From Gammaproteobacteria bacterium (GTDB lineage Bacteria > Pseudomonadota > Gammaproteobacteria > S012-40), in assembly GCA_029881255.1 (NCBI GenBank), contig JAOUMY010000005.1:66479-130478 (forward strand): a DNA stretch of 64,000 nt, read 5' to 3'. The stretch's first letter is position 1. Each line of letters starts with the position of its first letter. Shown here in pieces: positions 8,858 through 27,476 of the stretch. The notes under the pieces are model-generated. The model had not been told where the DNA came from. It did not search any database and saw only the letters and a list, made by a program, of their open reading frames with translations. The translations under genes and the position numbers were made by a program.

Positions 8858-9099
8858 TTCTTGTCCTTGCTTTTTTCTTCGATTGCACTTTGCAATGATT
8901 GCTCATCGCTCATCCGACGATCCGCTTTCACATGTCTCAGCATGCCTTTGGCTGCGCCTTTTTGTTTCTTTACTATGGTTATCTGTCCGTTAAAAATATA
9001 CGCGTCCACTTCGTCACCAGGATGGATATCTGCTTGCAAACACAAGTCGATCGGAATAGTAATTTGCCGCTTGGCGCTCACACGTGCCATCTTCGCCAC
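8854..9099 (-). CDS. vapB: AbrB/MazE/SpoVT-fold antitoxin VapB
   Basis: 81 aa. AKRQITIPIDLCLQADIHPGDEV swapped-hairpin motif. Directly upstream of and overlapping the PIN gene. Confidence 0.75.
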   Translation of the reverse strand: MAKMARVSAKRQITIPIDLCLQADIHPGDEVDAYIFNGQITIVKKQKGAAKGMLRHVKADRRMSDEQSLQSAIEEKSKDKK

Positions 9100-10319: not shown

Positions 10320-11328
10320 CTACTCTTTCTCTACATCCTTCATCGTCGTCACCAGACGGTCAAAATCGCTTATGTATTCTTCATCCTGAATGACACGAAA
10401 TTTTTCAAACTCGGTTTCGGCCAAGGCTTTAGCTATACTGGATGTCACTTTACCCGCGTCATTGAGAAGCTCGTATTCGTTGAAGGCGAGAAAGCTGTCG
10501 AGTTTACTCACCCAATCTTGCATGTTCATCAAACGCTTCCGTAGCGCCCGACCTTCAGCAAAATCGAGATACATGGATACAATCCGATTTAGTTCCTTGA
10601 GCTCATCTTCTGAAAGATAGTTCTTAACCACTGTGACATCTGATTTTAAAATCTTCCCGCTTGGCGCCTGCTTCCATGAACTCAGCCCCATATTTGGTTT
10701 TCCGACATCGACGCGTTCGTGAATCAATCCCGCCGCCGTATGCCCTGTGACCGCCCAATGGAGTTTATTCTGCACTTGAGCAAAAAAACTGCTTGGTAAG
10801 CTCTGCATCACGATTATAGTCGGCGGAACACTGCGCATAGATATCCGTAATCTTCTGGTAAAACCGTCTCTCTGAGGCGCGAATCTCCCGAATACGCTCC
10901 AGCAACTCATCGAAGTAATCCTTGCCCCAGCTCTTCCCCTGCTTCAATCGCTCATCATCCAATACAAAGCCTTTCATGATGAACTCGCGCAATGTTTGAG
11001 TTGCCCAGATACGAAACTGCGTGGCCTGGTAGGAATTAACCCGGTACCCGACCGATACAATCGCGTCCAGATGATAGACATTGGTGTTGTAGGATTTGCC
11101 GTCGGCAGCAGTTATTCGAAAAATTCGAATAACTGAATCCTCATTCAACTCATTGATCTTAAATATTTCTTTTAAATGATAATTTATCGTCTGGACCTCA
11201 ACGCCAAACAATTCGGCCATCTGCTTCTGCGTTAACCAAAGATTCTCTTCCAGGAAATAGACGGCCAGACGAACCGCACCGTCGGGACCGGTATAAAAGA
11301 CGATTTGTGATTGAGGCTCGACATCCAC
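10320..11328 (-). pseudogene. RhuM-family protein gene (the family RAST calls DNA-binding protein in cluster with Type I R-M), frameshifted
   Basis: N-terminal ORF (10765-11328) carries IVFYTGPDGAVRLAVYFLEENLWLTQKQMAELFGV. C-terminal ORF (10320-10910) carries WAVTGHTAAGLIHERVDVGKPNMGLSSWKQAPSGKILKSDVTVVKNYLSEDELKELNRIVSMYLDFAE. The two halves are in different frames and switch near an A7 run at 10785-10791. Confidence 0.65.
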
Positions 11329-11507
11329 GGAATTGACCTTGATTTGAGTGAATGAAAGTGAAGGGCAATATTACTGTATATATGCACAGCTTACAAGGCC
11401 TTGAACCCCACTACGGTCCGCAGTATGTTTTTTTGAACTGATCACCCACATACGCAAGAATTGCTCGTCATTCATAACGCGCTACATATGTCGAGCAGTG
11501 AAAAAAC

Positions 11508-11542
11508 CATTTTCGTGACGGCACGAAAATGGTCAAACGCGG
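11508..11542 (+). repeat. 35-bp palindrome-containing repeat, copy 2
   Basis: cattttcgtgacgGcacgaaaatggtcaaacgcgg. Same orientation as copy 1. Confidence 0.7.
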
Positions 11543-11831: not shown

Positions 11832-13025
11832 CTAAAACACATACTCACTAATATCTAGGTACTTGCTGATTCTAGGCAGAGTAAGTTTGTATTCGCCTGA
11901 TTCCACTTTTGCTAATGTAACATGCCAATACATCTTCCCCTCTGGCCTTTCCGTAGTATTTAAGTGCCCAATATTTTCCATAAATACTTTCATCGGTATA
12001 GCAAAAGCTTTGTCTAAATCCATTCCGCCCAGCACGAGAAACGAGTCCGAACTTGGTCCTAGGAATTCCTCCCAACGGGTATGAAACACAAACCAATACC
12101 GTTGATTTTCTCTTTCGTATGGTTTTGAGATCGTACAAACAACGCGTAGTTCTCTGTCCGCGCTCCAGTATGTCGCCCTCGTTTTCTTTATGAGAGCCTT
12201 ACCCTTTATCTCCCCAAATCGCCTTATAATATTGTCACGTTTTGCATCAAGTTCTTTTGCATCAGTAAATTCCCATGTTGACTTGCTAGTATTTGCACTC
12301 TTTTCTTGCGTTGCACGCTCGTTTGTCTCTACTTCCGCTGATTCTTCTACATCTTGCGCAGTCGTGTATATAACATCGACTAGGGCATCCAAACGTGTAT
12401 ATTCAAATGGCCGCAAAAGCTGTCTTACCTTTTTGCTCGTATCGTTTTCGGACAACATTTTTACTTTCAAAAGAGCTAAAAGTGACTCCACGCTAATTAT
12501 TCTAATATCCCAAGCATGACGAGATCCGCGAACTTGTGCCTCTAATTCGCCGGTATCATTTCGTCCTACGACAATGAGAATGGAAGACTCGCCGTCGATT
12601 TTACCTTGCTCACATAATTGGCGCCGATATCTGGCCAATGTGTCCAAGGTTATTCTATACGCGTCCGTCGTCTTAACCTCTACGACAAGACTAAATCCTT
12701 CTTCAGCTTTCCACAAACCATCAAATCCGACTTGGTTACTTCGTCCTTGGTACAACCCATACTCGACATCGAAATCAAGTCTTTTACCGAGAATATTGAC
12801 GAGATCTTGTAGCACGACTCCACTGTTATTAAACGACTTTTCTAAACACTGTTGAATATATTGTCCAATAAACTGCCTATCCATTGCCTCTAAGTATTCT
12901 CTAAGTTCCTTAGAACACACGGAGTTGTCTTTTAGATTCCCATCCCCTGCGAGCCCAACGAGTTGCTGTATCTGCTTTGACTCGATATCTTCCTTATTTG
13001 TTTTCCACAGACTCAGTAGCGACAT
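11832..13025 (-). CDS. PD-(D/E)xK nuclease-like protein (restriction-endonuclease fold) with uncharacterised C-terminal domain, co-transcribed downstream of hsdM
   Basis: GFDGLW...FSLVVEVKTTDAY fits D-x(n)-E-x-K. 10-nt gap after the hsdM stop. AT-richer than hsdM. C-terminal domain (YWFVFHTRWEEFL...GKMYWHVTL) is unassigned. Confidence 0.45.
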   Translation of the reverse strand: MSLLSLWKTNKEDIESKQIQQLVGLAGDGNLKDNSVCSKELREYLEAMDRQFIGQYIQQCLEKSFNNSGVVLQDLVNILGKRLDFDVEYGLYQGRSNQVGFDGLWKAEEGFSLVVEVKTTDAYRITLDTLARYRRQLCEQGKIDGESSILIVVGRNDTGELEAQVRGSRHAWDIRIISVESLLALLKVKMLSENDTSKKVRQLLRPFEYTRLDALVDVIYTTAQDVEESAEVETNERATQEKSANTSKSTWEFTDAKELDAKRDNIIRRFGEIKGKALIKKTRATYWSADRELRVVCTISKPYERENQRYWFVFHTRWEEFLGPSSDSFLVLGGMDLDKAFAIPMKVFMENIGHLNTTERPEGKMYWHVTLAKVESGEYKLTLPRISKYLDISEYVF

Positions 13026-13034
13026 AATACGTTC

Positions 13035-14540
13035 CTAGTTCAATTCTCCATTCCCTGCCAACACCTCCTCCACACTTCTAAACTCCTCCAACGCCGCCTC
13101 TAACTGCTCCACTATCTCCTGCGCCAACACATGCGGTGGTGGAAGATTTTCGGTGTCTTCGAGTGATTCGTCTTTTAACCAAAAGATATCCAGATTGGTC
13201 TTATCCCGCGCAACTAACTCATCATAGGTAAATGAACGCCACCTACCTGTCATTCCGGCATTCTTTTGGCCGGAATCCGGTTTGTCACTCCATGTCGCTT
13301 TGCGCTTGCTTCGGTCTTCGGCTTTATAGCACTCGATAAACTCATCAAAATCACTCTTCACCAGGCGTTTTGTTTTCAGGGTCATGTGCACATTGGTGCG
13401 GTAGTCGTAGACCCAGAGTTTTTTGGTCCAGGCGGTTTTGGAGGCGGGTTTAGCGTCGAAGAAGATGACGTTGGCCTTGACGCCCTGGGCGTAGAAGATG
13501 CCGGTGGGCAGGCGCAGTAAGGTGTGGAGATCGGTGCGTTCGAGCAGGTTTTTGCGCACGGTTTCGCCGGCGCCGCCTTCGAAGAGGACGTTATCCGGCA
13601 CCACCACGGCGGCTTTGCCGTCGATCTTGAGCATGTTGGCGATGTGTTGCACGAAGTTGAGCTGTTTGTTGGAGGTGGTGGCCCAAAAGTCTTCGCGCTC
13701 ATAGACCAGCTTTTCCTGTTCTTTTTTACCGGTCTTTTCGTTGATGACGGTAATGGAGCTCTTTTTACCAAAGGGCGGATTGGCCAGGACCATATCGACT
13801 CGGTCATCCCCCACTTCTTTGGCCAGGGCATCATTGGCGCTAATCGGGCATTCATCGCCTCCGATACCGTGCAGGTATAAGTTCATGGCACATAAACGCA
13901 CCACGCTATCGACAATATCGTTACCGCGTAAGGCGTGTTCTTTGAGATGACGTTGTTCTTTTTTGGAGGTGGCTTGTGCCGCCATGTAATCGTGGGCGGC
14001 CAATAAAAAGCCGCCGGTACCACAGGCGGGATCGGCCACGGTGTCGGTGGGTTTGGGTTGCATCACCTCCACCATCGCCTGGATTAACGGGCGCGGGGTA
14101 AAGTATTGCCCGGCACCGCCTTTCACATCCTGCGCATTGCGTTCCAACAAGCCTTCATAGATGTCGCCCTTCACATCCGCCGGCAAGGTGGACCACTGCT
14201 CCTTGTCGATCATCTTTATCAGGCGTTCCAGCTTGGCGGGGTCCTGGATTTTGTTTTGCGCCTTGCGGAAGATCGTGCCTAACATGCCGCCTTGTTTACC
14301 CAGGTTTTCCAGGGTATGGCGGTATTGCAGTTCTAAATCATCACCATCGAGCTTCACCAAATGGCCCCAGTTGAATTTAGTCGGCACCTGTACTTGCTGA
14401 CCAGCGGTTTCACGCTCATCGGCCATTTTTAGGAAGATTAAATAGGTAATCTGTTCGACATAATCCCCATAACCCACACCATCGTCACGTAAAACGTGGG
14501 CATAGTTCCAGACTTTGTTTACTATTTCTGATGCGCTCAT
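13035..14540 (-). CDS. hsdM: Type I restriction-modification N6-adenine DNA methyltransferase subunit HsdM
   Basis: HsdM_N-type N-terminus VWNYAHVLRDDGVGYGDYVEQITYLIFLKMADE. SAM motif I DPACGTGGFL. Catalytic motif IV LANPPFG. 501 aa. Confidence 0.9.
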   Translation of the reverse strand: MSASEIVNKVWNYAHVLRDDGVGYGDYVEQITYLIFLKMADERETAGQQVQVPTKFNWGHLVKLDGDDLELQYRHTLENLGKQGGMLGTIFRKAQNKIQDPAKLERLIKMIDKEQWSTLPADVKGDIYEGLLERNAQDVKGGAGQYFTPRPLIQAMVEVMQPKPTDTVADPACGTGGFLLAAHDYMAAQATSKKEQRHLKEHALRGNDIVDSVVRLCAMNLYLHGIGGDECPISANDALAKEVGDDRVDMVLANPPFGKKSSITVINEKTGKKEQEKLVYEREDFWATTSNKQLNFVQHIANMLKIDGKAAVVVPDNVLFEGGAGETVRKNLLERTDLHTLLRLPTGIFYAQGVKANVIFFDAKPASKTAWTKKLWVYDYRTNVHMTLKTKRLVKSDFDEFIECYKAEDRSKRKATWSDKPDSGQKNAGMTGRWRSFTYDELVARDKTNLDIFWLKDESLEDTENLPPPHVLAQEIVEQLEAALEEFRSVEEVLAGNGELN

Positions 14541-14563: not shown

Positions 14564-17500
14564 TTACTTTTTATCAAAAGGGATTTCCTTGACTAATAGC
14601 GAGACACCAATTTGCCTGGCTTGGCTATTCAACCCATCAAGCAAATGAACCAACTGCGACGTTTCAGCAGTTCTTTTTGAATCGTCTTTGATAGCTTTAG
14701 TTAATTCCGCTTTATTGACACATCCAGCAGTAGCTAGCACTACATATAGATTACGTTCAGGTTGATCAATTATATCTCTCTTAATTTTTTTCCATAACGC
14801 AGAGGCTGTCGGCTGGCCAGCAGGATGCTTAAAAAGCCGAGGAATTTGAGTTGAATTCCATTTTTTTCCTCTAGCCCAACTTTCTACTCCCTTTGGGGAC
14901 TCTATATTCGGCGACATATAAACAATGTTTTTAGATGCTTGTGAAACTATGTCATGCAACGCTGATGCAGATATTTTTGAATTACCTTTATTTGCTTTTG
15001 CATGAACAAAGGCTAATGACTTACTTTTAAAATCGACACACACAAAGTCTGCCGCTTCACTTCCAAGGTCATCGCAGATGATAGTTGATGGTGCAAACGG
15101 TAAGCCTATTTTATTTTGGGATATTACTGAAAATAAACTCCCTTTTGGAAACTGTTTAGTATTATTAGCTTTTAGCTTCTTGATTTCTTCTTCAGTACCT
15201 TTCTCATTCTTACAAGCTGGTGCGTCATTAGGTATTTCTATTAATTGAAGCAAATATTTCTCAAAGTAAGAGTAATCAATCTGGTAAAAATTTCTACCCG
15301 AATAAATGCTAGAACCATCTTTCATGCAGACGGTAATCACATCCTGGTTTCGATTAAAATAATCTGAAAATGCAGTAGGCTTTATACCTGTCGAGTCACT
15401 AATTGTTATGCTGGATGAAGAGTCTTCTTTAGTAATCCAGAATTTACGTTTCTCTGGTTTATATTTTAAATGAAAATCAATATCTGTTTTCTTATCTTCT
15501 ACTGATTCGACTGGCAAAAAACTAAGCTTGAAGAGAAAGGTGTCTGAGCCACCATTTTTAGGTGAAACTTCAACAGAAGCTTTTTGGCATAAATATTGTT
15601 CATCTCCTCCGCCTATATAGAAAACGACATCTGATCTAAACATATCAAATGATATTGATCCTGGGTCAATCTTATCAGGGGGGTCGCAGGCCGGCATATA
15701 CCTTGATAGGAAAGCGGAAGGAGCCGTTGAAGAGTCCAGTGCCTTTGCAGTTGACTTTGCCCAAGAAATAAAACTTTTATAGTCATGATCACGCAAGGTT
15801 ACTGTGTCAGCTTCTTTTCTTACTCGTCCATTTCCGATATTCAAATAACGACGCTCTTTATTTGAATAGCCTCTAGTAGTTCTACAGATATGGATTCGAT
15901 CTGTTATCGATGGAGAAATCAAGGATAGATTTGACCCTCGTATATCCACTCCTCTCACTGAGGAATCAAAAGGGATAGTATTTTGAGTGCTAGCGTTTGT
16001 GGGTGTAAAGCTCTCATCAAAATACTTTGACAAAGTGCCAGCACCTACTGGCAATGTGTGTTCATCAATATATTCCATCGGTAGATTACCGGCTGAATCT
16101 GCAATAAACACATAGTTTTTTGTAACGACCACACAATGTGTCTCAAGCCTAATTTCGTAAAGTGATCTACGGTATGCTCTGCTTGAATTAGCAATGCTGG
16201 CATAAACCCACAAAGCAGAATCTTTACGTTTCTGACATGGTTCATTGAGATTCGGCCCTAAAATAGTCGCATCTTCAAGATTCAAAGTGTCGGTGCAATT
16301 TTCAATGTAATCAGAGAGATCGAATGATTTAACTTTCTTACGAACTATTGCTGTTGGTGGAACAATAACTTGTGCATCACTATCTAAAGTTGAAGGATCA
16401 AATTTCTTTAGGAATCTCCCACTAAAATATTCTATTTCAGGCTGCAATGAGAGAAGCTTCTCTACAGCTTCTTTGTAATGCTGAGCACTTCTTAATTCTT
16501 GATCTCTCTCAAAATTTCGATAAGATTCCCACTCTACTTGAGGGCTTATTTCTTTTGGTGAAAGGATAAGCGAACAAGCATCTTTCGAGTCATCCCCACT
16601 TTTTCGAAGTATTCTGCCAATCTGTTGGATTAATTTTCTATCATTAGAAAATGAAGTGAATAATGCAGTTACACAAAAACGATTATCATCGAAACCTTCT
16701 GTTAATTTGTTTTGATGAACCCAAATGGCTGCGTCTTCCTCTTGCGGATCTGGCACGCTGCTATATAGATATTCTTCTTTCCTGCCTTGAAATCTATCAT
16801 GGATGCCTATTGCATTTATCGAGTTCTTATTACTTCGCAGGGTTGTCACCACATCCTCAATATCTGAAACATCTTTGCAACAAATAATTGCTCTCGGATT
16901 TGAACTAGGAAGACTTTTGCTTTTTAATAGCGATATCCATCTCCCTAAGAAGATTTCTGTTTGAGTTTGTAGCCTATCCGTATTTACACAGCTCAACTTC
17001 TCAAATTTAACATCCCTAATAATATTATTAGAAACAGCATCTTCGTGAGTAAAATGAAAGCATTGTGATTTTGGATCTGTTATTCGAAATAACTTCAAGT
17101 CATTTCGATACGGAGTAGCTGTTAGAAGTATTGTTTTTGTATTTAATTCTTTCACTGAGCGACCCCAGCCAACAGCAGGCTCGTAGTGGCACTCATCTAC
17201 AATTACGAAAGAAATAGTCTTCGCTAAAAGTTCATAAGCCTCAGAATATTCTTTTCTTAGGGTGCTTAAAGTAGCGAATGTGGTAACAAAGATTGCATTA
17301 GGGTTTGATTGTAACGTCGCTTCTGCTACAGAAGGCTTTAATTCTCGCACTCTTCTTGTTGGATTCTGTATTCCGCACTTATCCCAAAATCTCTCTTTAA
17401 TATCCGCAATCAACTGATTTCTTAAATATGCCCAAGGGGTTATGACGAGAGAAGAACCTGAACACGACAACGCTGTCAACGAGGCTATAACACCTGTTTT

Positions 17501-17638
17501 TCCAGTACCCGTCGGCATGCGGACCAAGCAAGTATCAGAGTTTGAATTTAGATGATCAACAGAAAACTTAACAGCATCCTTTTGGTGCGTCCAAAGTTTT
17601 GCTGCATTACTACGCGAGATATGAGCAAACGACTTCAT
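14564..17638 (-). CDS. SF2 DExH helicase fused to large C-terminal region with PD-(D/E)xK-like nuclease signature (cargo gene C)
   Basis: Motif I MPTGTGKTG, motif II VIVDECHY, motif III LLTATPYRND, motif VI QQIGRILR. C-terminal IICDDLGSEAADFVCVDFKSKSLAFVHAKANKG resembles a D...(D/E)xK nuclease core. About 40 % GC versus about 52 % in the flanking hsd genes. Its ATG overlaps the stop of the hsdM remnant (ATGA). Confidence 0.75.
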   Translation of the reverse strand: MKSFAHISRSNAAKLWTHQKDAVKFSVDHLNSNSDTCLVRMPTGTGKTGVIASLTALSCSGSSLVITPWAYLRNQLIADIKERFWDKCGIQNPTRRVRELKPSVAEATLQSNPNAIFVTTFATLSTLRKEYSEAYELLAKTISFVIVDECHYEPAVGWGRSVKELNTKTILLTATPYRNDLKLFRITDPKSQCFHFTHEDAVSNNIIRDVKFEKLSCVNTDRLQTQTEIFLGRWISLLKSKSLPSSNPRAIICCKDVSDIEDVVTTLRSNKNSINAIGIHDRFQGRKEEYLYSSVPDPQEEDAAIWVHQNKLTEGFDDNRFCVTALFTSFSNDRKLIQQIGRILRKSGDDSKDACSLILSPKEISPQVEWESYRNFERDQELRSAQHYKEAVEKLLSLQPEIEYFSGRFLKKFDPSTLDSDAQVIVPPTAIVRKKVKSFDLSDYIENCTDTLNLEDATILGPNLNEPCQKRKDSALWVYASIANSSRAYRRSLYEIRLETHCVVVTKNYVFIADSAGNLPMEYIDEHTLPVGAGTLSKYFDESFTPTNASTQNTIPFDSSVRGVDIRGSNLSLISPSITDRIHICRTTRGYSNKERRYLNIGNGRVRKEADTVTLRDHDYKSFISWAKSTAKALDSSTAPSAFLSRYMPACDPPDKIDPGSISFDMFRSDVVFYIGGGDEQYLCQKASVEVSPKNGGSDTFLFKLSFLPVESVEDKKTDIDFHLKYKPEKRKFWITKEDSSSSITISDSTGIKPTAFSDYFNRNQDVITVCMKDGSSIYSGRNFYQIDYSYFEKYLLQLIEIPNDAPACKNEKGTEEEIKKLKANNTKQFPKGSLFSVISQNKIGLPFAPSTIICDDLGSEAADFVCVDFKSKSLAFVHAKANKGNSKISASALHDIVSQASKNIVYMSPNIESPKGVESWARGKKWNSTQIPRLFKHPAGQPTASALWKKIKRDIIDQPERNLYVVLATAGCVNKAELTKAIKDDSKRTAETSQLVHLLDGLNSQARQIGVSLLVKEIPFDKK

Positions 17639-17832
17639 ATAATTTGTACGCCATCACCCCAGGCTAATTTATTTGGTATCTGCATATACTGTCCGGCTTT
17701 TTCTCGCTCATCGGCCATTTTGAGGAAGATAAGATATGTTATTTGTTCAACATAGTCCCCGTGACCCACACCATAATTACGTAAGACGTGGGCGGAGTTC
17801 CAGACTTTATTGTCTATTTCTGGTGCGCTCAT
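17635..17832 (-). pseudogene. 5' remnant (65 codons) of a second, diverged hsdM
   Basis: MSAPEIDNKVWNSAHVLRNYGVGHGDYVEQITYLIFLKMADEREKAGQYMQIP versus the full HsdM MSASEIVNKVWNYAHVLRDDGVGYGDYVEQITYLIFLKMADERETAGQQVQVP. About 80 % nucleotide identity over about 150 bp. Homology ends at the helicase start codon. Confidence 0.8.
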
Positions 17833-17854
17833 TTTTTAATAGTCTTTATATTGT

Positions 17855-20206
17855 TTAATCGGCCACTCTTTCAGTGGCTGTTACTGTGTTATCAATATGG
17901 ATAATCTCACACCTAACCTCTAGCCGTTTTTTGTCACTGCCAGTTGGTATAAGATGTTTTTGAATTGGCATCGGTATGGGAATAAATATCCTATTTTTAA
18001 GTGCAATGGTCGTCGTAGGATAAACTTCACCACCAGATGCCTCTGTAATAATCTCAGGCAACTGAATATCGTAATACAAGCCAAATCGACCAGAATGATG
18101 TTGAAATATCAACAAAATCCTCTGCCCACCCCATATAACTGATGTAGTATGAGGTTGAAGGAAAAATTCACCGTTTTGTTCTCTAATACGATCAGTTATG
18201 GCTAAGAAACACTGGAAACCATTTAAAGCTTGTTCACTATTTTCAATAGTAAGTAGTTTCGCATCTGTCTCAATATCTGTCCTTGATATTGCGGGCATTG
18301 GGACACCCGGCTCTGCACCGGTTCCTATTAATTGTTTCTCTGCCTCACTAACAATGTCTGGCACTACTTCTTGAGCAGACTTTGCTGACCCACTGTCAAC
18401 CACTTGTACATTTCGTCTAGCGACGACCTGAGATCTTCTTGCGCCTTCATCAACCGATATTTGGCCTGCAAGTACTAAATCCCATATTTCACTTAAACTA
18501 CCTAAGTCAGTCTTTTCATATTCATACACTTCGCGTTTGCTTCTCATTCTTTTCAGAAAGGCTTCTGCCCCTTCGCGTGTGGCACTAGGGACAAAGTTTG
18601 CTATTTTCGGAAATATTATCGATCTAACAAAATCCTTAACCATGCCGGCAAATACTTCAAATTCATTCTGATATACTTCGAGCAAAATAGAAGCCGATGA
18701 ACCATTAGGATTTATATAAATCGTTGGCACATTTCCTGCTAACTCTATGTACACTGGCAGTTGGTGAGAAAGGGAAGCTAATTCTATTCGTGCTTTAACA
18801 AAATAATCCGCCTCAAGTATCGAGGTAAGCCTAAACACAAGACCGGATTCCGCCAATGAATAATCCGACTGTTTCTTTAGGCTAATTACTTTTGGTGAAT
18901 CGTCTATTCGTTGAATATTTGTACAATATGCATTTATATAGTTGCTTTGACATCTTTTCCTTGGGTTACTTGTTGCAGCCACAAGTAATTTTTTATCCTC
19001 GCTCGCATACTGTTCTATTATTGAGGCATCTTGGCCTTCATAATAATTAAACAATGTTGGACTAATAGAATCTCTGATCTCTTCCAAGCTGATATTTCTC
19101 GAACCCGGCTCATTTCTGATGGTAATTTTCCCACATAAATCATACTTTCCGTGATTTACTACCCATTGCATAAATGCATTGCTCATGTCGGCTTGCGGCT
19201 GCTTTGATAGATGATGAGACACAAAGCTTTCTACATCAGTAAATATGTTTTGTAATATCTGTAAACTTTCTGTTTCTAATGCCTCACGACCTGCTGTTGG
19301 CCGCAAAAACAAAAAATCAGCAATACCACCTAGCCGATATACTGAACTTAATGATGTGGGCGCCAAACTGAACCCTGAGCGGTATGTTTTAACAGCTCCA
19401 ATGCCTTGACGAAGAATCATCTTGCCCGGTAGCGCCTGTGAATTATATTTGACGTTAGTTAGTTCAATACGAACTTCGCCAGTATTATCCCCAGCCAACA
19501 ACACATCCGACCTAGTTCTCTGGCTAATCTCCATATCTGATTGTTCTATTTTCCATGCTACATTTATAGGTGGTACGCTTTGCTCAAATCCTTGCTGGCT
19601 GATAAGTTCCCCATTTACGTAAACAGGTATCTGCACATGTGTTACACACTCTTTTATATAATTCGTGGCACTATTTAGATCGATTGGCTTGTTTTCGTAC
19701 AATATGGCAGTAACAGTGGTACCTGATGTGCCTTGCGCAGCCTCTTTCTTTACATCAATACAATTTTCTGTCGCAGACAATGACTCGCGTTCAGCACTCG
19801 ATATAATCCGTTCGCTTCCCAATAACTTCTCTGTTTCCACTATTAGTTTTTTTGCTACACCAAAGTTTGCCATTGCGCCAATACCAAAGGTACCTACTAC
19901 ACCGGCTGCCTTTGCGTGTTCATTATTTTTAGAGCTAGATCCAGCACGCCAAAAATGCTGTTTGACATCTTCAATTGTCATTCCAATTCCATTATCAGTA
20001 ATAACAACCTGGTTCTGCTTTATCGCTACATCGATGCGTGGAGAAAAAGTTGGATCATCAGCTTTTCTAAGCAATATTGCATCAAATGCATTTTGCGTAT
20101 TCTCTCTAAGTAACGCCAAAGGTGACTGATAGATTTGTGCTGCCAACACCTCAATTATTCTATCGATGTCGACCGCTAATGGTATTTTATCTATGTTGTC
20201 TGTCAT
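17855..20206 (-). CDS. GHKL-superfamily ATPase (Hsp90/MutL/MORC-like Bergerat fold) with long uncharacterised C-terminal region (cargo gene B)
   Basis: N box ENTQNAFDAI. G1 box VITDNGIGMT. G2-like GTFGIGAMANFG. 783 aa. Overlaps the upstream phosphoesterase gene by 4 nt. AT-rich (about 35-45 % GC). Confidence 0.75.
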   Translation of the reverse strand: MTDNIDKIPLAVDIDRIIEVLAAQIYQSPLALLRENTQNAFDAILLRKADDPTFSPRIDVAIKQNQVVITDNGIGMTIEDVKQHFWRAGSSSKNNEHAKAAGVVGTFGIGAMANFGVAKKLIVETEKLLGSERIISSAERESLSATENCIDVKKEAAQGTSGTTVTAILYENKPIDLNSATNYIKECVTHVQIPVYVNGELISQQGFEQSVPPINVAWKIEQSDMEISQRTRSDVLLAGDNTGEVRIELTNVKYNSQALPGKMILRQGIGAVKTYRSGFSLAPTSLSSVYRLGGIADFLFLRPTAGREALETESLQILQNIFTDVESFVSHHLSKQPQADMSNAFMQWVVNHGKYDLCGKITIRNEPGSRNISLEEIRDSISPTLFNYYEGQDASIIEQYASEDKKLLVAATSNPRKRCQSNYINAYCTNIQRIDDSPKVISLKKQSDYSLAESGLVFRLTSILEADYFVKARIELASLSHQLPVYIELAGNVPTIYINPNGSSASILLEVYQNEFEVFAGMVKDFVRSIIFPKIANFVPSATREGAEAFLKRMRSKREVYEYEKTDLGSLSEIWDLVLAGQISVDEGARRSQVVARRNVQVVDSGSAKSAQEVVPDIVSEAEKQLIGTGAEPGVPMPAISRTDIETDAKLLTIENSEQALNGFQCFLAITDRIREQNGEFFLQPHTTSVIWGGQRILLIFQHHSGRFGLYYDIQLPEIITEASGGEVYPTTTIALKNRIFIPIPMPIQKHLIPTGSDKKRLEVRCEIIHIDNTVTATERVAD

Positions 20207-21702
20207 GAATGTATATCCCGTTTTGCTTGAACATCCCTTAGCATTTCACCCTTTAATGTTTCATCTATCCCAAGCTCATCACCGTAATTACTGATTGCAT
20301 CTAAAGCATCTGTAAATTTTTTTAATTCACAATATGCGCTAACTAATGATACTAATTCTTGAATACTCTGTGGTTTCACAAACTGTCTGTTTAACCCTGT
20401 CCAATCCCGTGAATTTTCGAAGGCTTTCAAAAGCAATTTTCTTCCATATATTGGCAGTTCTTCTATTGTATTGAGTAATTTTATAGCTTCTCCCTCATCG
20501 CCTTCGCTCAACAATCGCTCTGCATCAATAATCTTCGAACTTACCATATGTGCTTTCTTATCAATCGGAGTGCCTGCTGGAGATGTTTCAGAAGACCATC
20601 GGACCTCTGCGTATGTTTTCCCCCCATATTCTGATAGATATCTTGGCCCGAATACGTGCCCACTCATCATTTCTCTAACATGAACTTTAGCGAAGTCATA
20701 ATCATCGGATATTTCAATAATGTTATATTGCCTTCTTTCTCCGGTCGGCAATTCTCGCGATCCCACACACAGAGAGCCGGCGCTAACTAAAGCCATTGTC
20801 GCCTCTGAGGGTACGCTGATAGTTTGTGGTGATACTTCGGTTCTATGCTGATGACCATGAACCCCTAATCGAAAGCCACGATATATCATTTCATGAATTC
20901 TATTATTATCCATATAGTCACTCTGCTCAGGAGGACCGCTAGTACTATGATGCCAAACGGCAATTTTCAACAAATAAGGTTTTCCTGAGTCTTTAATTCC
21001 TAAGTACGCTTGACCTATCGCTCCTTCAGGTATAGAGCCAACATAACGATAACAGTCATTTCTGTAGCACGAATTAAATCCAGCTACAGCAATATTTCCA
21101 TTATCTAATTCAAATAGATTCCAATACCTGTCTTTTGTTAGCTCATACGCCAGATCCACTCCGCTATAAAAATCACAATAGAACTTTTCATAGTTCTCAA
21201 ACCTACTGTCATATAATTTTTTATCAGTAATGTGATAGAGCTTTCTATCCGCAAATGAAAATCTATAATCACTCTCAGGATTATTGAAATATTGCCTCAA
21301 ATCTGTGCGTCCATTTGGCGGCGGATCTGAAACCTCACTCATTGCGGAGAATGCTTTATTCCAGTCAACATCATGATTACCTGGCACTATTACAATATTC
21401 TTTTTATTGCCCCCCAAATATCTATCTACTAATTCACTTAAAAAATCATTCGCAGATTGGTATTGCTGCATTAACTTTTTTTCAGCGTCCGTTTCTCCTA
21501 TTCTTACACCCTGTACGATATCGCCGCTCACAATAATCGCATCGATTGGTCCGATTTCAGGATCCTCTTTCCTATGGTTACAAAAATCTTGATCCAATGA
21601 AGCTACTAAAGAAGCGTTATCAATAGGCTCATCTGGTGAGCGATGCAAATCAGAAATATGGAGAATCCTATACATAAGAATTCGTCCAAAGCCGGCTGAC
21701 AT
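20203..21702 (-). CDS. calcineurin-like metallophosphoesterase with C-terminal extension (cargo gene A)
   Basis: Motifs ILHISDLH (D-x-H), VSGDIVQG (GD), VPGNHD (GNH[DE]), WHH, HGHQH (GH-x-H). True start may be the internal MYRILHISDLH at 21675. Begins 18 nt after the hsdS stop. Confidence 0.75.
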   Translation of the reverse strand: MSAGFGRILMYRILHISDLHRSPDEPIDNASLVASLDQDFCNHRKEDPEIGPIDAIIVSGDIVQGVRIGETDAEKKLMQQYQSANDFLSELVDRYLGGNKKNIVIVPGNHDVDWNKAFSAMSEVSDPPPNGRTDLRQYFNNPESDYRFSFADRKLYHITDKKLYDSRFENYEKFYCDFYSGVDLAYELTKDRYWNLFELDNGNIAVAGFNSCYRNDCYRYVGSIPEGAIGQAYLGIKDSGKPYLLKIAVWHHSTSGPPEQSDYMDNNRIHEMIYRGFRLGVHGHQHRTEVSPQTISVPSEATMALVSAGSLCVGSRELPTGERRQYNIIEISDDYDFAKVHVREMMSGHVFGPRYLSEYGGKTYAEVRWSSETSPAGTPIDKKAHMVSSKIIDAERLLSEGDEGEAIKLLNTIEELPIYGRKLLLKAFENSRDWTGLNRQFVKPQSIQELVSLVSAYCELKKFTDALDAISNYGDELGIDETLKGEMLRDVQAKRDIHS

Positions 21703-21719
21703 TCATACTGGACACTTCA

Positions 21720-23135
21720 CTATATTCCATTTAATGATCCCTTGAATACTGAAGCTAAAACTGATTGTTTGTTTTTTTCTGCTTTTCTAAGCTGAACACC
21801 CAAATCATCGTCCAAGCGCTGGATTGCTACCAATCGTTGCTCTACCAACCGGACAATTTCTTCTTGTTCCTCAATGCTTGGAAAAGCTATTCGTAAAGTC
21901 TTTAAGTTGTCTAAGTTTAATCCTGGCTTTCCAGCACCATAAGCCGCCTCTTCTAGTTTTTTTCTTGCACCATCTTTACTTATTAGATATGTATAGAGAT
22001 ATCTCACACATTTCGTTATCGTCGGCCTACATAACGCAACATGCTGGCTCACGTAGGCTTCATCTAATTCAATATTTACACAGCCTGTCTTTGTCACATT
22101 TGCACCAGTGATGGTTATCAGAAGATCTCCATACTTAACTCTTGTTCTCATGCCTTCCGCTTTATCGGGCAAACTTACATACGCAATACTATCTAAATCT
22201 AATACATCATATTTCAAATTCTGAGCTCGTATAAACGTTGCACCAGAATCTGCGTAATACTTTGCCCATCCTCTTGAACCCGATGTTATATATTCAGTCA
22301 ACTGGTCTAATGAAGCCGTTATCCATTCACTTGGTAACTCAAGGTCTTCTGGAAGGACAGGTTCTATATACTTCCCCTTCCACTTATCATCCTTGGGCAT
22401 TTTGCCTTTAGCTTTGAATTGCTCGAGTTGTTGTTCTTCCCATTTTTGGCGGCGTTCTTTGAGGATACGTTCGAGTAGTTGGGAAGCGGGTTCGAGCTTT
22501 GCCTTGTTTGCTTCGCGCCATTCTTTGGTGAGTTCGCCGGTGACGGCGGCTTTGAGGACGGATTGGCGGTATTGTTTGAGGAGTTGTTTGGCTTTTTTTA
22601 GGGCTTCGATGCCGGCGTCGATATGGGAGAAGAGTTCTTCGATTTTGGCGACGATGCGTTTTTGTTGTTCGGGTGGTGCTAGAGGCACTGGGATCTGTTT
22701 TAGGTCCGCCTGATTCAATTTGAGCCTAGTTGTACCACCCACATAGTCTTTGTAATTAAATTTATTGAGATAATGCAGAAGATATTTATTCGAAGTAACT
22801 CCTTCTATCGCATCTAATATATGCGCATGGTTGTTGACCCAGAATTTCCCCTTCGCAATGTAAGCAACATTCTTTGATTTATCGAAGAACGGCGCACCGT
22901 CTTCACCAATTAATAGATACTCGCCTTCGAATATGAAACCATCAATGACGCCTACTTGACCTGTTGCACCATAATACGGATACAGCTCGTCTTGAGATTT
23001 ACCATCAATTCGAGCAGATCTTTCTTTACTATTAATTGGAATACGCTTCGAATCTAAAATCTCAGCACAATCCGAAAGTGGCGATATAGCCCACCCTTCA
23101 GGCAATTCATTCATTTTCTCTAATACTGCACTCAT
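21720..23135 (-). CDS. hsdS: Type I R-M specificity subunit HsdS
   Basis: Two target-recognition domains (AT-rich). Conserved central and C-terminal coiled-coil repeats (LPEGWAISPLSD...; second TRD LPSEWITASLDQL...). 471 aa. 4-nt overlap with hsdR. Confidence 0.85.
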   Translation of the reverse strand: MSAVLEKMNELPEGWAISPLSDCAEILDSKRIPINSKERSARIDGKSQDELYPYYGATGQVGVIDGFIFEGEYLLIGEDGAPFFDKSKNVAYIAKGKFWVNNHAHILDAIEGVTSNKYLLHYLNKFNYKDYVGGTTRLKLNQADLKQIPVPLAPPEQQKRIVAKIEELFSHIDAGIEALKKAKQLLKQYRQSVLKAAVTGELTKEWREANKAKLEPASQLLERILKERRQKWEEQQLEQFKAKGKMPKDDKWKGKYIEPVLPEDLELPSEWITASLDQLTEYITSGSRGWAKYYADSGATFIRAQNLKYDVLDLDSIAYVSLPDKAEGMRTRVKYGDLLITITGANVTKTGCVNIELDEAYVSQHVALCRPTITKCVRYLYTYLISKDGARKKLEEAAYGAGKPGLNLDNLKTLRIAFPSIEEQEEIVRLVEQRLVAIQRLDDDLGVQLRKAEKNKQSVLASVFKGSLNGI

Positions 23136-25930
23136 GCAATGAGGTATCCGTTCAATTCTTGTATTAACTTATCTAGATCTTTCCCAAACAACTCCCTCGC
23201 CTTCAACAACCCACCCTCCTGGTTAAAGGGAATGTAGTTAAAGTCGTCTACCGTCATTTCGGCATTTTGGGCGATTTGGTCTTTTATTTTATTGAGCCAG
23301 GCGAGTTGGTCTGGCTGGAATGCTTTGTTTTGTTGTTTTAGCCAATTATTAAAGCGGTTGTTAACCAGCTCTGTGAAAGGTTCGAGCACGTCGCTTAGGC
23401 CGGTGGAAAAACGAATGAGGCTGACGATGTTGGTTAACAGCTCTTTCGGTGGTACGCCTTTGACTTTGTTTTTTTCCAACTGCTCGTAGGCCTTCCACAC
23501 TTCGATGGGCGCGAGATTATACGGCGGTTGCTGGATTTCTTCTGCCAGTTTTTCTATTTGCTCATAACTCAGGTGGCGCTTTTGATAGGGCTGCTGGTAG
23601 ATGAGCTGGATGGCGTCGAGTTCGTCTTTGTGGTCTTGAATAAATTGTTGCCAGTTTTGGATGAGGACTTCGGCTTTTTCTTCGTCGTAACCGGCGGCGA
23701 TCAGCTCATCGGCGCTGTCGTCGATGAGTTGGTCTGTGTCTTTGCGCAGTTCTTCGATGAGTTCGCGCAGGTCTGGATTGTGGAAGGGTTTGATTAGAAT
23801 ATCGGCCTTGGGTTTAAACGCTTCCTGGATTTGTTTCTCGTTTGGTTCATCGGTCTTGGCGTGTATTTTTGCCGCTTCGATTAAGGGCTCTTCGTTGGTG
23901 GCATGAATGAGTTCACCGGCGATGAGGGCCAGGGGTTTGTCGGTGCCAAGGGTTTCTTTAATTAAGCTGTTGACGCGTTTGCGTTGTTGGTCGTTGAGTT
24001 TGAGATCGAGCCGGATCATGCGGTTGCCGAGGGCACGCAGGGTTTCGGAATGGCGGTCGCCTCTGGCGACTTGTTCCATGAGTTTGGCGGTGGAGACGCT
24101 GGGTTTGGTTTCCAGTGATTTGGTTTCGGTTTTGTCGGTTTCGGTGACGCCGACGCAATCGACCAGCACAAAGCGGCTTTTACCGGGGGCATCGGGGGTG
24201 ACTTTGTGTAGTTCGTCTCGGCTGATGATGCGGGTGCCACGGCCTTTCATTTGTTCGTAGTAGGCCTGGCTTTTGACATCACGCATGAACATGACGCATT
24301 CCAGGGGCCGGATGTCGGTGCCGGTGGCGATCATGTCGACGGTAACGGCGATGCGGTATTGCGGATCGGTGCGGAAGGCCTTGATGGATTCTTCTGCGGT
24401 TTTTTTGCCGACTTTGTAGGTGATCTTTTTGCAGAAGGCGTTGCCTTCATCGAAGACTTCGCGCACGGCATCGACGATGCGGTCGCAGTGGTCGTCGTCT
24501 TTGGCGAAGATGAGGGTTTTGGGGACCCATTCCATTTTGTCTTGTTGCCATTTGCGCTCGGGGAAGCATTCTTTGAGGCAGCGGTCTTTATAGGCCTGGA
24601 TGACGGTGCGAATCTGGTTGGGGGCCAGAACGCTGCGGTCGAGTTGTTGGGCGAGCCATTCTTCTTCCTGGTCGAGCACTTCGAGGCGTTTTTGTTTGGT
24701 GAGGCGGTCGCGGATTTCGACGGCGGTGCCGGCTTCGATTTTGTTGCCCTGTTCGGTGAGCTCGGTTTTGATGCGGTAGATGTCGTAGCCCACATTGACC
24801 TTGTCGACCACGGCGTCTTCGTGGGTGTATTCGGAGACGAGGTTTTGCCCAAAAAAGCCGATGGTCTTTTTGGTGGGTGTGGCGGTGAGGCCAATGAGGA
24901 AGGCATCGAAGTATTCGAGCACCTGGCGCCAGAGGTTGTAGATGGAGCGGTGGCATTCGTCGATGATGATGACATCGAACTCTTCGATGGGGATGTCGGG
25001 GTTGTAGCTGACGGGCCGGGGCTCTTTGTTAATGGTACTGCCTTCTATTTCAAAGCCGGAGTGTTCGTCGGCCTCGTCATCCAGCTCTTGATGCGTAAGT
25101 TGGGAATACAGGCGCTGGATGGTGGAGATGGTGACCTTGGTGGCGTCGGGGATGCCGGCGCGGCCGAGGATGTTGACGTTGTAGTGTTGGGTGAATTTGC
25201 GGCCATCGTGGGGGATGACGAATTGTTCAAATTCATCCTTGGCATTGGTGGCGAGGTTGCCACGGTCGACCAGGAACAAGACGCGTTTGACCTTGGCGAA
25301 CTTGGCCAGGCGATAGACTTCGGTGACGGCGGTGTAGGTTTTACCGGAGCCGGTGGCCATTTGTAACAGGGCGCGGGGTTTGCCGGCTTTGAGGCTGTGT
25401 TCGATGCCGGTGATGGCGTCGATTTGGCACGCGCGCAGGTTGTCGGTGTTGAGTTCGGGGAGGTCTTTTAGTAAACGACTTCTGAGCGTCGTGCCCTCTT
25501 CTAACCATTCTTTACAGGTTTCGGGTTTATGAAAATGAAACACATTGCGTGAGCGTGGGAGCGGATCGCGCTCGTCGCGAAAACGAACTTCGTGGTTGGT
25601 GGCTTCATAGAGAAATGGAAGTGGTTTGTTCTCTGGCGCCCAACGCTCGATGTGTTTGGTATTGGACGTTGCGTAGCGTCCGGATTGCTCGGCCACACCG
25701 CCTAAATCACTGCCCTCGCGTTTGGCTTCGATGATGCCGCAGGCCTTGCCATCGATAAACAACATGTAATCAGCAGGACCAGTATCGGTATCCATTTCGC
25801 GCACAGCGACACCAATATTCTCGAAGAGATTGAGACGATTTTTATCCTGCACCACCCAACCCGCAGCGATCAATTTTTGATCGATTTCCTGACGCGTTTC
25901 GGCTTCGAGTTTGGTGTAATCAGGACTCAC
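23132..25930 (-). CDS. hsdR: Type I R-M restriction/helicase subunit HsdR
   Basis: N-terminal nuclease-like domain ETRQEIDQKLIAAGW. Walker A QMATGSGKT. DECH box IIIDECHRS. 932 aa. Confidence 0.9.
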   Translation of the reverse strand: MSPDYTKLEAETRQEIDQKLIAAGWVVQDKNRLNLFENIGVAVREMDTDTGPADYMLFIDGKACGIIEAKREGSDLGGVAEQSGRYATSNTKHIERWAPENKPLPFLYEATNHEVRFRDERDPLPRSRNVFHFHKPETCKEWLEEGTTLRSRLLKDLPELNTDNLRACQIDAITGIEHSLKAGKPRALLQMATGSGKTYTAVTEVYRLAKFAKVKRVLFLVDRGNLATNAKDEFEQFVIPHDGRKFTQHYNVNILGRAGIPDATKVTISTIQRLYSQLTHQELDDEADEHSGFEIEGSTINKEPRPVSYNPDIPIEEFDVIIIDECHRSIYNLWRQVLEYFDAFLIGLTATPTKKTIGFFGQNLVSEYTHEDAVVDKVNVGYDIYRIKTELTEQGNKIEAGTAVEIRDRLTKQKRLEVLDQEEEWLAQQLDRSVLAPNQIRTVIQAYKDRCLKECFPERKWQQDKMEWVPKTLIFAKDDDHCDRIVDAVREVFDEGNAFCKKITYKVGKKTAEESIKAFRTDPQYRIAVTVDMIATGTDIRPLECVMFMRDVKSQAYYEQMKGRGTRIISRDELHKVTPDAPGKSRFVLVDCVGVTETDKTETKSLETKPSVSTAKLMEQVARGDRHSETLRALGNRMIRLDLKLNDQQRKRVNSLIKETLGTDKPLALIAGELIHATNEEPLIEAAKIHAKTDEPNEKQIQEAFKPKADILIKPFHNPDLRELIEELRKDTDQLIDDSADELIAAGYDEEKAEVLIQNWQQFIQDHKDELDAIQLIYQQPYQKRHLSYEQIEKLAEEIQQPPYNLAPIEVWKAYEQLEKNKVKGVPPKELLTNIVSLIRFSTGLSDVLEPFTELVNNRFNNWLKQQNKAFQPDQLAWLNKIKDQIAQNAEMTVDDFNYIPFNQEGGLLKARELFGKDLDKLIQELNGYLIA

Positions 25931-26272: not shown

Positions 26273-26455
26273 TTAAAATGCGCAAACAGGTTTCGGCAGA
26301 CTGTTGTGTGCTAGGTGATTCAGTGTAGTTCCTGCTCTAAATTCTTCGGGAAGGCGGAACATCTCCTCAATCAACCCGCCTTCAATCATGTCAATAAAGA
26401 TGTTCGCATCACTGATTAACAACATCTTGCGAACACTCCATGTTCCGACAGGCAT
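26273..26455 (-). CDS. short ORF, possibly truncated PIN-like/DUF4411-like gene often found downstream of HTH-ImmA regulators
   Basis: 60 aa. LLISDANIFIDMIEGGLIEE resembles a PIN-like N-terminus. Overlaps the ImmA gene end. Very tentative. Confidence 0.2.
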   Translation of the reverse strand: MPVGTWSVRKMLLISDANIFIDMIEGGLIEEMFRLPEEFRAGTTLNHLAHNSLPKPVCAF

Positions 26456-27476
26456 GGAGTGCCGATACTGACATTCCTAGTAATTCCGCAGCTTTTGATT
26501 CGCCAACAAGGTCTTCAGCTAAGGCATGGTAAACAAGTTGTTCAAACATACGAGCCGTTTCTTGAGGAAACTGTGGGTCGGGCTCTTGTTCTTTCCAGCC
26601 ATGTTTATTGAAGTATCCCCATAGTTTTCCGAAATGCTGGTTCGGCAATATACCGAGATCGCGTGCACGATAAAGCCATCCGCCCATGCTTAAGCCATAC
26701 TCGTGTTTGAGTATCATGAGTTCGCGCGGCTCTATCCAGGTTCGTTTGTTACCGAGATTCGCTTTTACTTTGCTTTGTGGTGCCAGGAATGCACCTGCGA
26801 AACGATGACAAGCGAGTTCTTCGTCCAAGTCTTTATTGAGGCGCCCATTGAGCACCAAGTGGCCTAGCTCATGCGCCAAGGTAAAACGCTGACGGTCTCC
26901 CGGCCAATGCTTTCCTACTACTACAACAGGACTTCCGTTGACGGTAGCAGACAGTCCATTGAAATGTTTGTGTCCGTCATATTGAGTAATAAAGACTTTA
27001 ATACCTTTTGCTTCGAGGGTATCTATCAGCACAGGAATCGGGTTTAGGCCGAGTTGCCATTCGGTGCGTATTTTATCCGCGACGTCTTCGATTTCATCAA
27101 ATGATTCTATTTGACGTGGCAAGTCTTCCGGAAGGACAAAAGGAACAGACCAGGGACTCGGAATAAATTCCTCCAGTTCTATCCAACGTTCAAGTTGCTC
27201 TTTTACGTCGGCATATACCTTTGCCTCTTCTTTAGCAGGCAGTTTTTCATGTTCACGATGTTCAACGTTCTCTAGCTCGACACTGACCTGGCGAAAGAAG
27301 TATTCGGTGCGAACATTTAGTGCTTTTGACAAGGCGAGCAAAACTTTCGACGAAGGCGTGGACTCGTTCCGTTCATATTTGGAGATCGCCATTGCTGTAA
27401 TCTCGGCCAACTCAGCCAAATCCCGCAATGACAGACCGGCAGCTTTCCGCGCTTGTTGTATCCGTTCTCCGATCAT
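26409..27476 (-). CDS. XRE-family HTH fused to ImmA/IrrE-type zinc metallopeptidase (DUF955) regulator
   Basis: N-terminal HTH QARKAAGLSLRDLAELAEITAMAISKYERNES. HEXXH motif LAHELGHLVL. 355 aa. Confidence 0.8.
   Translation of the reverse strand: MIGERIQQARKAAGLSLRDLAELAEITAMAISKYERNESTPSSKVLLALSKALNVRTEYFFRQVSVELENVEHREHEKLPAKEEAKVYADVKEQLERWIELEEFIPSPWSVPFVLPEDLPRQIESFDEIEDVADKIRTEWQLGLNPIPVLIDTLEAKGIKVFITQYDGHKHFNGLSATVNGSPVVVVGKHWPGDRQRFTLAHELGHLVLNGRLNKDLDEELACHRFAGAFLAPQSKVKANLGNKRTWIEPRELMILKHEYGLSMGGWLYRARDLGILPNQHFGKLWGYFNKHGWKEQEPDPQFPQETARMFEQLVYHALAEDLVGESKAAELLGMSVSALHACRNMECSQDVVNQ

Follow-up and report, generated by a model that had tools for sequence, protein, structure and literature searches.

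The 64,000-nt stretch of gammaproteobacterial DNA analyzed here (contig JAOUMY010000005.1; hereinafter the window) carries a Type I restriction-modification (R-M) operon whose hsdS and hsdM genes are separated by a block of ~7.1 kb (14564-21702) coding for a metallophosphoesterase, a GHKL ATPase and a superfamily 2 (SF2) DExH helicase. We found that this block is made up of two cargos: the phosphoesterase and the ATPase constitute an autonomous gene pair recurring across bacteria and archaea (cargo 1), and the helicase is an independent gene absent from all 80 pair loci examined elsewhere (cargo 2). We consider it likely that both are stand-alone anti-phage or anti-plasmid defenses that ride in the R-M operon.

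The separation of the two cargos emerges from a survey of gene neighborhoods. We scanned an alignment of the ATPase family against one genome per species, obtaining 256 confirmed matches, examined 80 loci sampled from Proteobacteria, Bacteroidota, Actinomycetota, Chloroflexota, Cyanobacteria, Planctomycetota and Bathyarchaeia, and searched the neighbors within 10 kb by tblastn with the window proteins. A homolog of the phosphoesterase lies immediately upstream of the ATPase gene in 78 of the 80 loci (one of the remaining two has no upstream DNA and the other is rearranged), as against 0/80 for a homolog of the helicase. The preliminary description of this DNA had read the three genes as one candidate defense module, while holding that the reading would fall if homology searches placed them apart in other genomes; as the helicase is indeed unlinked elsewhere, this reading has to be abandoned on its own terms. 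The stop codon of the phosphoesterase gene and the start codon of the ATPase gene overlap or are contiguous in almost every locus where the spacing can be measured (-1 to -17 nt), with -4 nt, the overlap also seen in the window, being the commonest value (27/66). The pair lacks a conserved third partner: the biggest cluster of neighbors is represented in 6/80 loci, and the large genes upstream are heterogeneous, coding variously for methylases, helicases, GyrB and PNPase. Only about 9 of the 80 loci have a homolog of an hsd gene no farther than 10 kb away. Phosphoesterase and ATPase genes make up a strict, translationally coupled unit of two. We define it by a phosphoesterase gene (~490 amino acids, aa) that immediately precedes an ATPase gene (~775 aa) on the same strand and overlaps or abuts it, a definition to which the window locus conforms.

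The genome scan places the pair in 256 species or more, with 246 representatives at 50% clustering (E<=1e-30), and its taxonomic range, at 39-49% identity, extends from Proteobacteria to Bathyarchaeia. Its distribution is patchy across phyla and domains. A megablast search of E. coli genomes with the whole 7.1-kb block returned no match. In its closest relative (locus L262, 2868-12352), with an ATPase 85% identical to that of the window, the pair lies directly downstream of Tn7-like genes for an rve (TnsB-like) protein, TniB and TniQ, and is probably transposon cargo. It is further found on four conjugative megaplasmids, adjoining an ABC-three-component (ABC-3C) system in P. aeruginosa pPUV-9, and in five IMG/VR contigs. 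The neighborhoods are enriched in DNA methylases, Mrr, PLD, Type ISP, GmrSD, HmaB, integrases and resolvases, with DNA methyltransferases being the commonest immediate neighbors (~9/127). In Thioalkalivibrio paradoxus (CP007029; locus L001, 5323-12307) the pair is directly preceded by a co-directional gene for a 1064-aa SIR2_2 protein, with a Type I hsdR nearby; we considered the SIR2_2 gene as a third member of the system and set it aside as a neighbor, as it is not conserved in other loci.

A second line of evidence lies between the cargos themselves, in the form of a small open reading frame (ORF) that we term hsdM'. BLASTP aligns its product with residues 1-64 of the intact HsdM at 73% identity (E 1e-30), and its DNA is ~80% identical to hsdM over ~190 nt. 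It begins 22 nt past the ATPase stop, ends with a stop codon overlapping the helicase start (ATGA), and occupies the place taken by the intact hsdM in loci L003 and L264. Judged by its sequence, hsdM' is a decayed copy of the 5' end of hsdM, left as a recombination scar between cargo 1 and cargo 2. As its stop overlaps the helicase ATG, it may now act as a leader ORF coupling the translation of the helicase. The run of NCBI accessions from MDH5546197 to MDH5546199 leaves one number between them, and hsdM' thus appears to have been annotated as a protein.

Within this Type I family, the sister loci have a single cargo apiece. L003 and L264/265 have the order hsdR(EcoEI_R_C)-hsdS-phosphoesterase-ATPase-hsdM with no helicase, and their ATPases are 75-77% identical to that of the window. 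Conversely, L263 has the order hsdR'-hsdS-helicase-hsdM with neither phosphoesterase nor ATPase; its helicase (71% identity) is the closest to that of the window, and its hsdR is 63% identical. The hsdM of the window is 82% identical to that of L263 and 82-84% identical to those of L263, L264 and L003 taken together. Given the hsdM remnant between the cargos and the sister loci with one cargo each, the pair and the helicase are two separate acquisitions. In L064, again of this Type I family, the pair occupies the hsdS-hsdM slot in inverted orientation, bringing the embedded instances in the family to four (the window, L003, L264/265 and L064). Outside these, a Mesorhizobium locus (L031) has the pair directly ahead of hsdM-hsdS-hsdR. 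In this Type I family, the hsdS-hsdM junction behaves as a cargo slot open to reuse, occupied by the pair in either orientation, by the helicase, or by both cargos. The simplest reading of the window locus is that an operon of the form hsdR-hsdS-[pair]-hsdM would have recombined with one of the form hsdR-hsdS-[helicase]-hsdM, leaving the remnant as the scar. Two other Type I operons that embed a helicase relative (L010, 4767-9998; L011, 5108-9878) possess two diverged hsdM paralogs (~50% identical), which flank further cargo, an IS66 element and an SLFN/AlbA_2 gene in L010 and GmrSD_N in L011. It would seem that cargo exchange repeatedly leaves duplicated or truncated copies of hsdM behind.

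The host operon (Table 1) has the three intact ORFs for HsdR, HsdM and HsdS expected of a Type I system, all with strong matches. HsdR is matched by Pfam ResIII, EcoEI_R_C, HSDR_N and Helicase_C, and by the NCBIfam models PRK11448 and restrict_EcoAI below their cut-offs; it falls in the type IB-like group by virtue of its EcoEI_R_C domain. HsdS has two Methylase_S stretches (Pfam) and matches PADLOC Specificity_I (1e-90), while HsdM matches Pfam N6_Mtase (2.9e-69) and HsdM_N as well as PADLOC MTase_I (8e-195). Hidden Markov model searches of the kind that the preliminary description had proposed, against Pfam, PADLOC and NCBIfam, upheld its domain calls for both the Type I and the cargo proteins, and the ORF coordinates agree with its placement of three co-directional cargo genes between hsdS and hsdM, all on the minus strand. 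Its picture of tight packing holds for the 17-nt spacing between hsdS and the phosphoesterase gene (44 nt with the 490-aa start used by NCBI) and for the 4-nt overlap of the phosphoesterase and ATPase genes, but not for the ATPase and helicase genes, which do not overlap and are 216 nt apart, with the 65-aa hsdM' ORF having been missed. The hsdR stop and the hsdS start likewise overlap by 4 nt.

Table 1. Features of the hsd operon and its cargos in the window (positions are those of the window)
Feature	Position	Strand	Description
hsdR	23132-25930	-	932 aa, Type I restriction subunit, EcoEI/EcoAI-like, type IB family; host gene
hsdS	21720-23135	-	471 aa, specificity subunit, two target-recognition domains
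metallophosphoesterase (cargo 1, gene A)	20203-21702	-	499 aa, Pfam Metallophos
GHKL ATPase (cargo 1, gene B)	17855-20206	-	783 aa, Pfam HATPase_c_3
hsdM' remnant	17635-17832	-	65 codons, similarity to the 5' end of hsdM
SF2 DExH helicase (cargo 2)	14564-17638	-	1024 aa, Pfam ResIII/DEAD
hsdM	13035-14540	-	501 aa, intact Type I methyltransferase
orphan ORF	11832-13025	-	397 aa, 9 nt past hsdM
terminator-like hairpin	11505-11534	-	13-bp stem followed by a T run; pattern match from a consensus scan

Since a minus-strand scan from hsdR downward detected no strong terminator candidate before the hairpin at 11534-11505, a single long transcript from hsdR to the hairpin is plausible. The AT-richness reported earlier for the cargo is borne out: the three genes have a GC content of 38-40% and a third-position GC content (GC3) of 0.29-0.32, as compared to 52-53% (hsdR 52.8%) and 0.64-0.66 for hsdR and hsdM. 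The pair is likewise AT-richer than the hsd genes hosting it in three independent loci (the window, L003 and L064). The view that the block is foreign cargo within a type IB-like hsdR-hsdS-...-hsdM operon, and a reasonable anti-phage candidate, is supported. The GC content of hsdR and hsdM (GC3 ~0.65) also exceeds the window mean of 46%; being GC-richer than this average, the Type I system itself, and not the cargo alone, is probably foreign to the genome.

The ATPase proved to be Hsp90-like rather than MutL-like, as had been suspected from the sequence alone. A PDB profile search recovers the N-terminal domain of Grp94, HtpG and TRAP1 (E 2e-15), and a Foldseek search with its AlphaFold2 (AF2) model (predicted local distance difference test score, pLDDT, 78) aligns 620-685 columns to full-length Hsp90s (E 1e-22), ahead of SMCHD1, ParE, MORC and MutL, with an identity to the Hsp90s of only ~13-15%. 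The protein comprises the N, middle and C domains followed by an additional beta-rich C-terminal domain (~100 residues). The Bergerat-type ATP-site residues E35, N39, D71, G73, G75 and G102-G110 are invariant in the family, as is the middle-domain Arg-Glu dyad R307/E308 (in the motif TAGREAL), which resembles the catalytic loop of the Hsp90 middle domain (compare R380 of Hsp90). With a Bergerat N domain, a middle-domain arginine and a C-terminal dimerization domain, it has the defining elements of the Hsp90 family and is a full-length Hsp90-fold GHKL ATPase. It was also compared to MORC, paraMORC and SMCHD1, an assignment we rejected as its best full-length structural matches are true Hsp90s and the MORC nuclease, S5-CW and coiled-coil modules are absent; matches to the GHKL restriction enzymes of the BbrUII/HgiDII family, for their part, cover only ~150 residues. 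PADLOC offers no match beyond the generic GHKL motif, and Pfam nothing usable for residues 230-783 at E<=10. Within this region, the beta-rich domain (~600-770; 17855-18400) displays strongly conserved histidine-rich motifs, QPH686xT688 and QHH704S705G, together with W692, Y711 and Y712, and could be a second catalytic or ligand-binding site.

The phosphoesterase (Pfam Metallophos, 3.9e-11) consists of a catalytic domain (~10-350) and a helical TPR-like domain (~382-498; 20203-20560). The motifs D18xH20, G60D61, G108NHD111, H251H252 and G283HxH286 are invariant. Its AF2 model (pLDDT 88.8) places it beside SMPDL3B and ASM in fold searches, and we regard it as an SMPDL3/Icc-like enzyme with a TPR-like C-terminal tail. 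In searches against PDB sequences, a single-sequence query found no match and a profile query only the generic small subunit of PolD; for the tail, Pfam at E<=10 gave nothing usable. As the metallophosphoesterase motifs and the Bergerat residues are invariant, both enzymes of the pair look active. We also considered the Mre11-Rad50 (SbcCD) type of nuclease-ATPase pair and rejected it, as this calls for an Mre11/SbcD phosphoesterase with an SMC-like ABC ATPase, which the pair does not offer.

The TPR-like domain is of the type found in co-chaperones of Hsp70 and Hsp90, so that its occurrence next to a gene for an Hsp90-fold protein echoes the eukaryotic Hsp90-PP5 couple. The pair resembles the Hsp90 family (HtpG, TRAP1, Grp94) and PP5 in the N-M-C fold, ATP-site residues and middle arginine of the ATPase, and in a TPR-bearing metallophosphoesterase as the partner. 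It differs in the low identity and extra beta-rich domain of the ATPase, in a phosphoesterase of the Icc/SMPDL3 rather than the PPP type whose TPR-like domain is C-terminal, and in being mobile and patchy instead of housekeeping.

Among defense-associated proteins, the phosphoesterase comes closest to two sets of models. The first is the PADLOC phage defense candidates (PDC), derived by guilt-by-embedding from genes lodged in Type I R-M, BREX and DISARM loci (Payne et al. 2024, bioRxiv 10.1101/2024.01.29.577857). Both cargos share this mode of embedding, and the catalytic domain of the phosphoesterase weakly matches the N-terminus of PDC-S60 (1e-20), which is a single protein of 1027 model positions and not a pair; the PDCs are, moreover, themselves candidates and not validated systems. 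The second comprises DS-8 and DS-9 from DefensePredictor, validated anti-phage systems with an essential SMPDL3A-like metallophosphatase, coupled in DS-8 to a NACHT NTPase (PMC13092281). These share with the pair a related metallophosphatase and, if our proposal below is right, an effector-plus-NTPase logic. They differ from it in their partners, a NACHT or a HAD phosphatase in place of an Hsp90-fold GHKL ATPase, and the TPR-like domain is an extra feature of the pair. Assignment of the pair to DS-9 or DS-8 was rejected on the NCBIfam scores (DS9_1, 54.8 bits against a cut-off of 420; DS8, 31.1 against 790) and the absence of HAD and NACHT domains.

Cargo 2 is an independent single gene coding for an SF2 DExH helicase fused to a PDC-S71-like C-terminal domain. 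The helicase core (~10-360) is recognized by Pfam ResIII and DEAD, with a weak Helicase_C match, and preserves invariant motifs in the form of the Walker A (41-49), D148E149xH151, TATP (173-176) and QQxGR (338-342). It is followed by a C-terminal region of ~650 aa; residues 490-1014 align with positions 76-583 of the 589 in the PDC-S71 model (E 1e-40), which excludes the helicase core, such that our protein has a helicase N-terminus of ~480 aa beyond the model. The PD-(D/E)xK-like region claimed for this part survives as an invariant pattern, D857, E861, D864...H879-A-K881, compatible with a putative PD-(D/E)xK-type site, but not as a recognizable domain: residues 480-1024 have no match in Pfam (E<=10, with 35 relatives also scanned) or in PDB profile searches. 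For the whole protein, a single-sequence search of the PDB found nothing and a profile search only RadD, XPB and UvrB. Its relatives never adjoin the pair. They are embedded in unrelated Type I operons as hsdM-helicase-hsdS-hsdR; one in E. coli is solo, next to icd and an e14-like prophage, as are most of the distant ones. In viral contigs only generic SF2 matches were detected.

In architecture, cargo 2 recalls Hna, a single-protein defense system that joins an SF2 helicase to a PD-(D/E)XK nuclease and has a broad, patchy distribution (PMC13381803, PMC12445080). Both are single genes of patchy spread with an N-terminal SF2 helicase and a C-terminal nuclease-like domain, which is putative in cargo 2, and the size of its C-terminal region sets cargo 2 apart. 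The Hna-carrying plasmid pSymA of S. meliloti, present in the plasmid collection, is not among the 27 records that match our helicase at E<=1e-20, and the PDB profile search did not return Hna entries. Because pSymA is not matched at this threshold, the helicase does not appear to be a close relative of Hna, a judgment made without direct sequence comparison to it.

The embedding of defense genes in R-M operons has been published before. The nearest precedent is TgvAB, a validated two-gene GmrSD-like system located in the Type I R-M operon of the Vibrio cholerae pathogenicity island VPI-2, which works without HsdR and provides complementary coverage (PMC11411939). It parallels the present locus in being an independent multi-gene module nested in an hsd operon, and differs in its unrelated proteins (DUF262/GmrSD type IV restriction) and its position between hsdR and hsdS rather than hsdS and hsdM. 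By analogy with TgvAB, the cargos are probably independent of the Type I enzyme. The preliminary description had instead likened them to PrrC/RloC-type cargo held in check by that enzyme; they do share with PrrC and RloC a location inside an hsd operon, but they lack ABC-ATPase and anticodon-nuclease domains (Pfam, PADLOC, NCBIfam) and lie mostly outside hsd loci, the pair in L064 even being inverted within the slot, and we found nothing suggestive of such control. Membership in Mza or Hma was rejected as well, there being no MzaA-E or HmaA/B/C model among the PADLOC matches of the three cargo proteins at E<=0.01. More generally, the earlier view that the genes match no named system in full stands, the PADLOC and NCBIfam matches being weak or partial.

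From the observed gene content, linkage, folds and catalytic conservation, along with the scar and the sister loci, we infer a role in defense, a contact between the two proteins of the pair and their likely substrates as follows. In cargo 1, the Hsp90-like protein would be an ATP-driven dimeric clamp or switch that senses an infection cue, be it a phage protein acting as a 'client' or DNA, and then licenses a bound phosphoesterase, probably docked via the TPR-like domain. The phosphoesterase might hydrolyze nucleotides or nucleotide signals, which the fold ranking favors, or nucleic acid, with phage replication being blocked or infection aborted as the outcome; such a scheme would follow the NTPase-plus-effector logic of DS-8. 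In cargo 2, the helicase would translocate on invading DNA as its C-terminal domain degrades it, in the manner of Hna or Cas3. Residence in the R-M operon would give both cargos joint transfer and expression with it, without control by the Type I enzyme. For the pair, a defensive function is favored by its patchy spread, its association with mobile elements, its defense-type neighbors, and the proximity of the phosphoesterase to the PDC-S60 and DS-9A/DS-8 models.

Several points weigh against the picture of two stand-alone defense cargos. The case for defense by either cargo is drawn from genomic context and not from experiment. Measured against the named anti-phage models of PADLOC v2 and NCBIfam r20, both genes of the pair stay below the cut-off, and in many loci the pair has housekeeping genes for neighbors, gyrB, pnp and mutS among them. 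The ATPase family conserves no EEVD-type C-terminal tail, its tails being variable, and for this reason the PP5-like docking is offered as an analogy only. The proposed nuclease site of the helicase is a pattern and not a recognized domain. As to the history of the locus, the hsdM remnant is too diverged from the candidate parental loci to be assigned to one of them, and the similar GC3 of the pair and the helicase would also fit a shared donor.

The housekeeping neighborhoods have a bearing on one alternative in particular, namely that the pair is a mobile stress or proteostasis module, an Hsp90-PP5-like chaperone with its TPR co-chaperone phosphatase, or else a DNA-repair module, that merely hitch-hikes in R-M operons. 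The full Hsp90 fold of the ATPase and the co-chaperone-type TPR-like domain of the phosphoesterase are what one would anticipate from such a module, and the lack of a defense model naming the pair is in keeping with it. However, a patchy presence across phyla and archaea in a composition unlike that of the host genes, the recurrence in or beside R-M, Hma, GmrSD and ABC-3C genes, transposons and plasmids, and the resemblance of the phosphoesterase to the defense-associated PDC-S60 and DS-9A models speak against it, as does an ATPase without an EEVD tail; on this evidence we think the alternative unlikely.

The prominence of DNA methyltransferases among the immediate neighbors raises the further prospect of the pair as an accessory of DNA-modification systems, which processes DNA ends or nucleotides produced by R-M, Hma or BREX-type enzymes or modulates restriction. 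This would sit well with the adjacency of HmaB, Type ISP and Type I genes in several loci and with the four instances embedded in one Type I family. Yet ~90% of the 80 loci have no hsd homolog within 10 kb, the partner systems are heterogeneous, the pair does not keep to one orientation with respect to the host operon, and it travels alone on the Tn7-like element, making an accessory role quite improbable. The remaining proposal, one integrated three-gene system that is Mza-like and checked by the Type I enzyme in the manner of PrrC/RloC, could appeal to the co-directional, tightly packed genes of similarly low GC3, to the lack of a strong internal terminator and to GHKL ATPase-helicase pairings reportedly predicted in R-M contexts by Iyer et al. 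in 2008, but is highly implausible in light of the helicase being absent from 80/80 pair loci and its relatives never standing beside the pair, the hsdM remnant separating the cargos, the sister loci with one cargo each, the inversion of the pair in L064, the lack of any hsd genes in most pair loci, and the lack of any Mza, PrrC or RloC model match (Pfam, PADLOC, NCBIfam).

The operon is flanked by further genes of interest. The orphan ORF past hsdM (MDH5546195.1), annotated as 'hypothetical protein', forms a singleton cluster, has a low GC content (42%), and showed no significant match in Pfam (E<=10 included), PADLOC or NCBIfam, and its only other match, weak and partial, is a gene on a Halalkalicoccus plasmid. 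We regard the ORF as a possible third cargo gene, located at the operon's 3' end. Shortly past the downstream end of the operon, a RhuM-family gene (10320-11328, minus strand) is split into two overlapping ORFs covering profile positions 1-120 and 116-249, and resembles a pseudogene created by a frameshift. To one side of the hsd locus lies a PIN-domain (VapC-like) gene with a small upstream ORF (8423-9099, minus strand), and immediately upstream of hsdR is a gene for a regulator with helix-turn-helix and IrrE/M78 domains (26409-27476, minus strand). The PIN and IrrE/M78 genes are typical accessories of defense islands, and the region from ~8.4 to 27.5 kb looks like one such island.

Our analysis corrects an apparent three-gene operon insert to two independent cargos, and the hsdM remnant between them provides a helpful marker by which exchange of cassettes at the hsdS-hsdM junction of this Type I family can be recognized. 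The pair is, apparently, an unnamed and widespread two-gene module: PADLOC-DB v2, NCBIfam r20 and the RefSeq annotation supply only generic names ('metallophosphoesterase', 'ATP-binding protein'), Pfam identifies no more than its generic domains, and in full-text literature we found no description of its domain combination, nor any of PDC-S71. The union of an Hsp90 fold with a phosphoesterase looks new. A bolder proposal, which we advance as speculative and rather doubtful, is that the pair represents a new class of immune system, in which an ATPase of Hsp90 architecture would sense infection through phage 'clients' and activate a TPR-bearing SMPDL3/PP5-like phosphoesterase effector. If true, this would be the first defense system built on an Hsp90-fold protein, and a prokaryotic counterpart of the eukaryotic Hsp90-TPR-phosphatase and GHKL (MORC/SMCHD1) genome-defense modules. 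Should the pair indeed defend its hosts, it would add a new class of NTPase to defense biology and provide a second handle on what these phosphoesterases hydrolyze.

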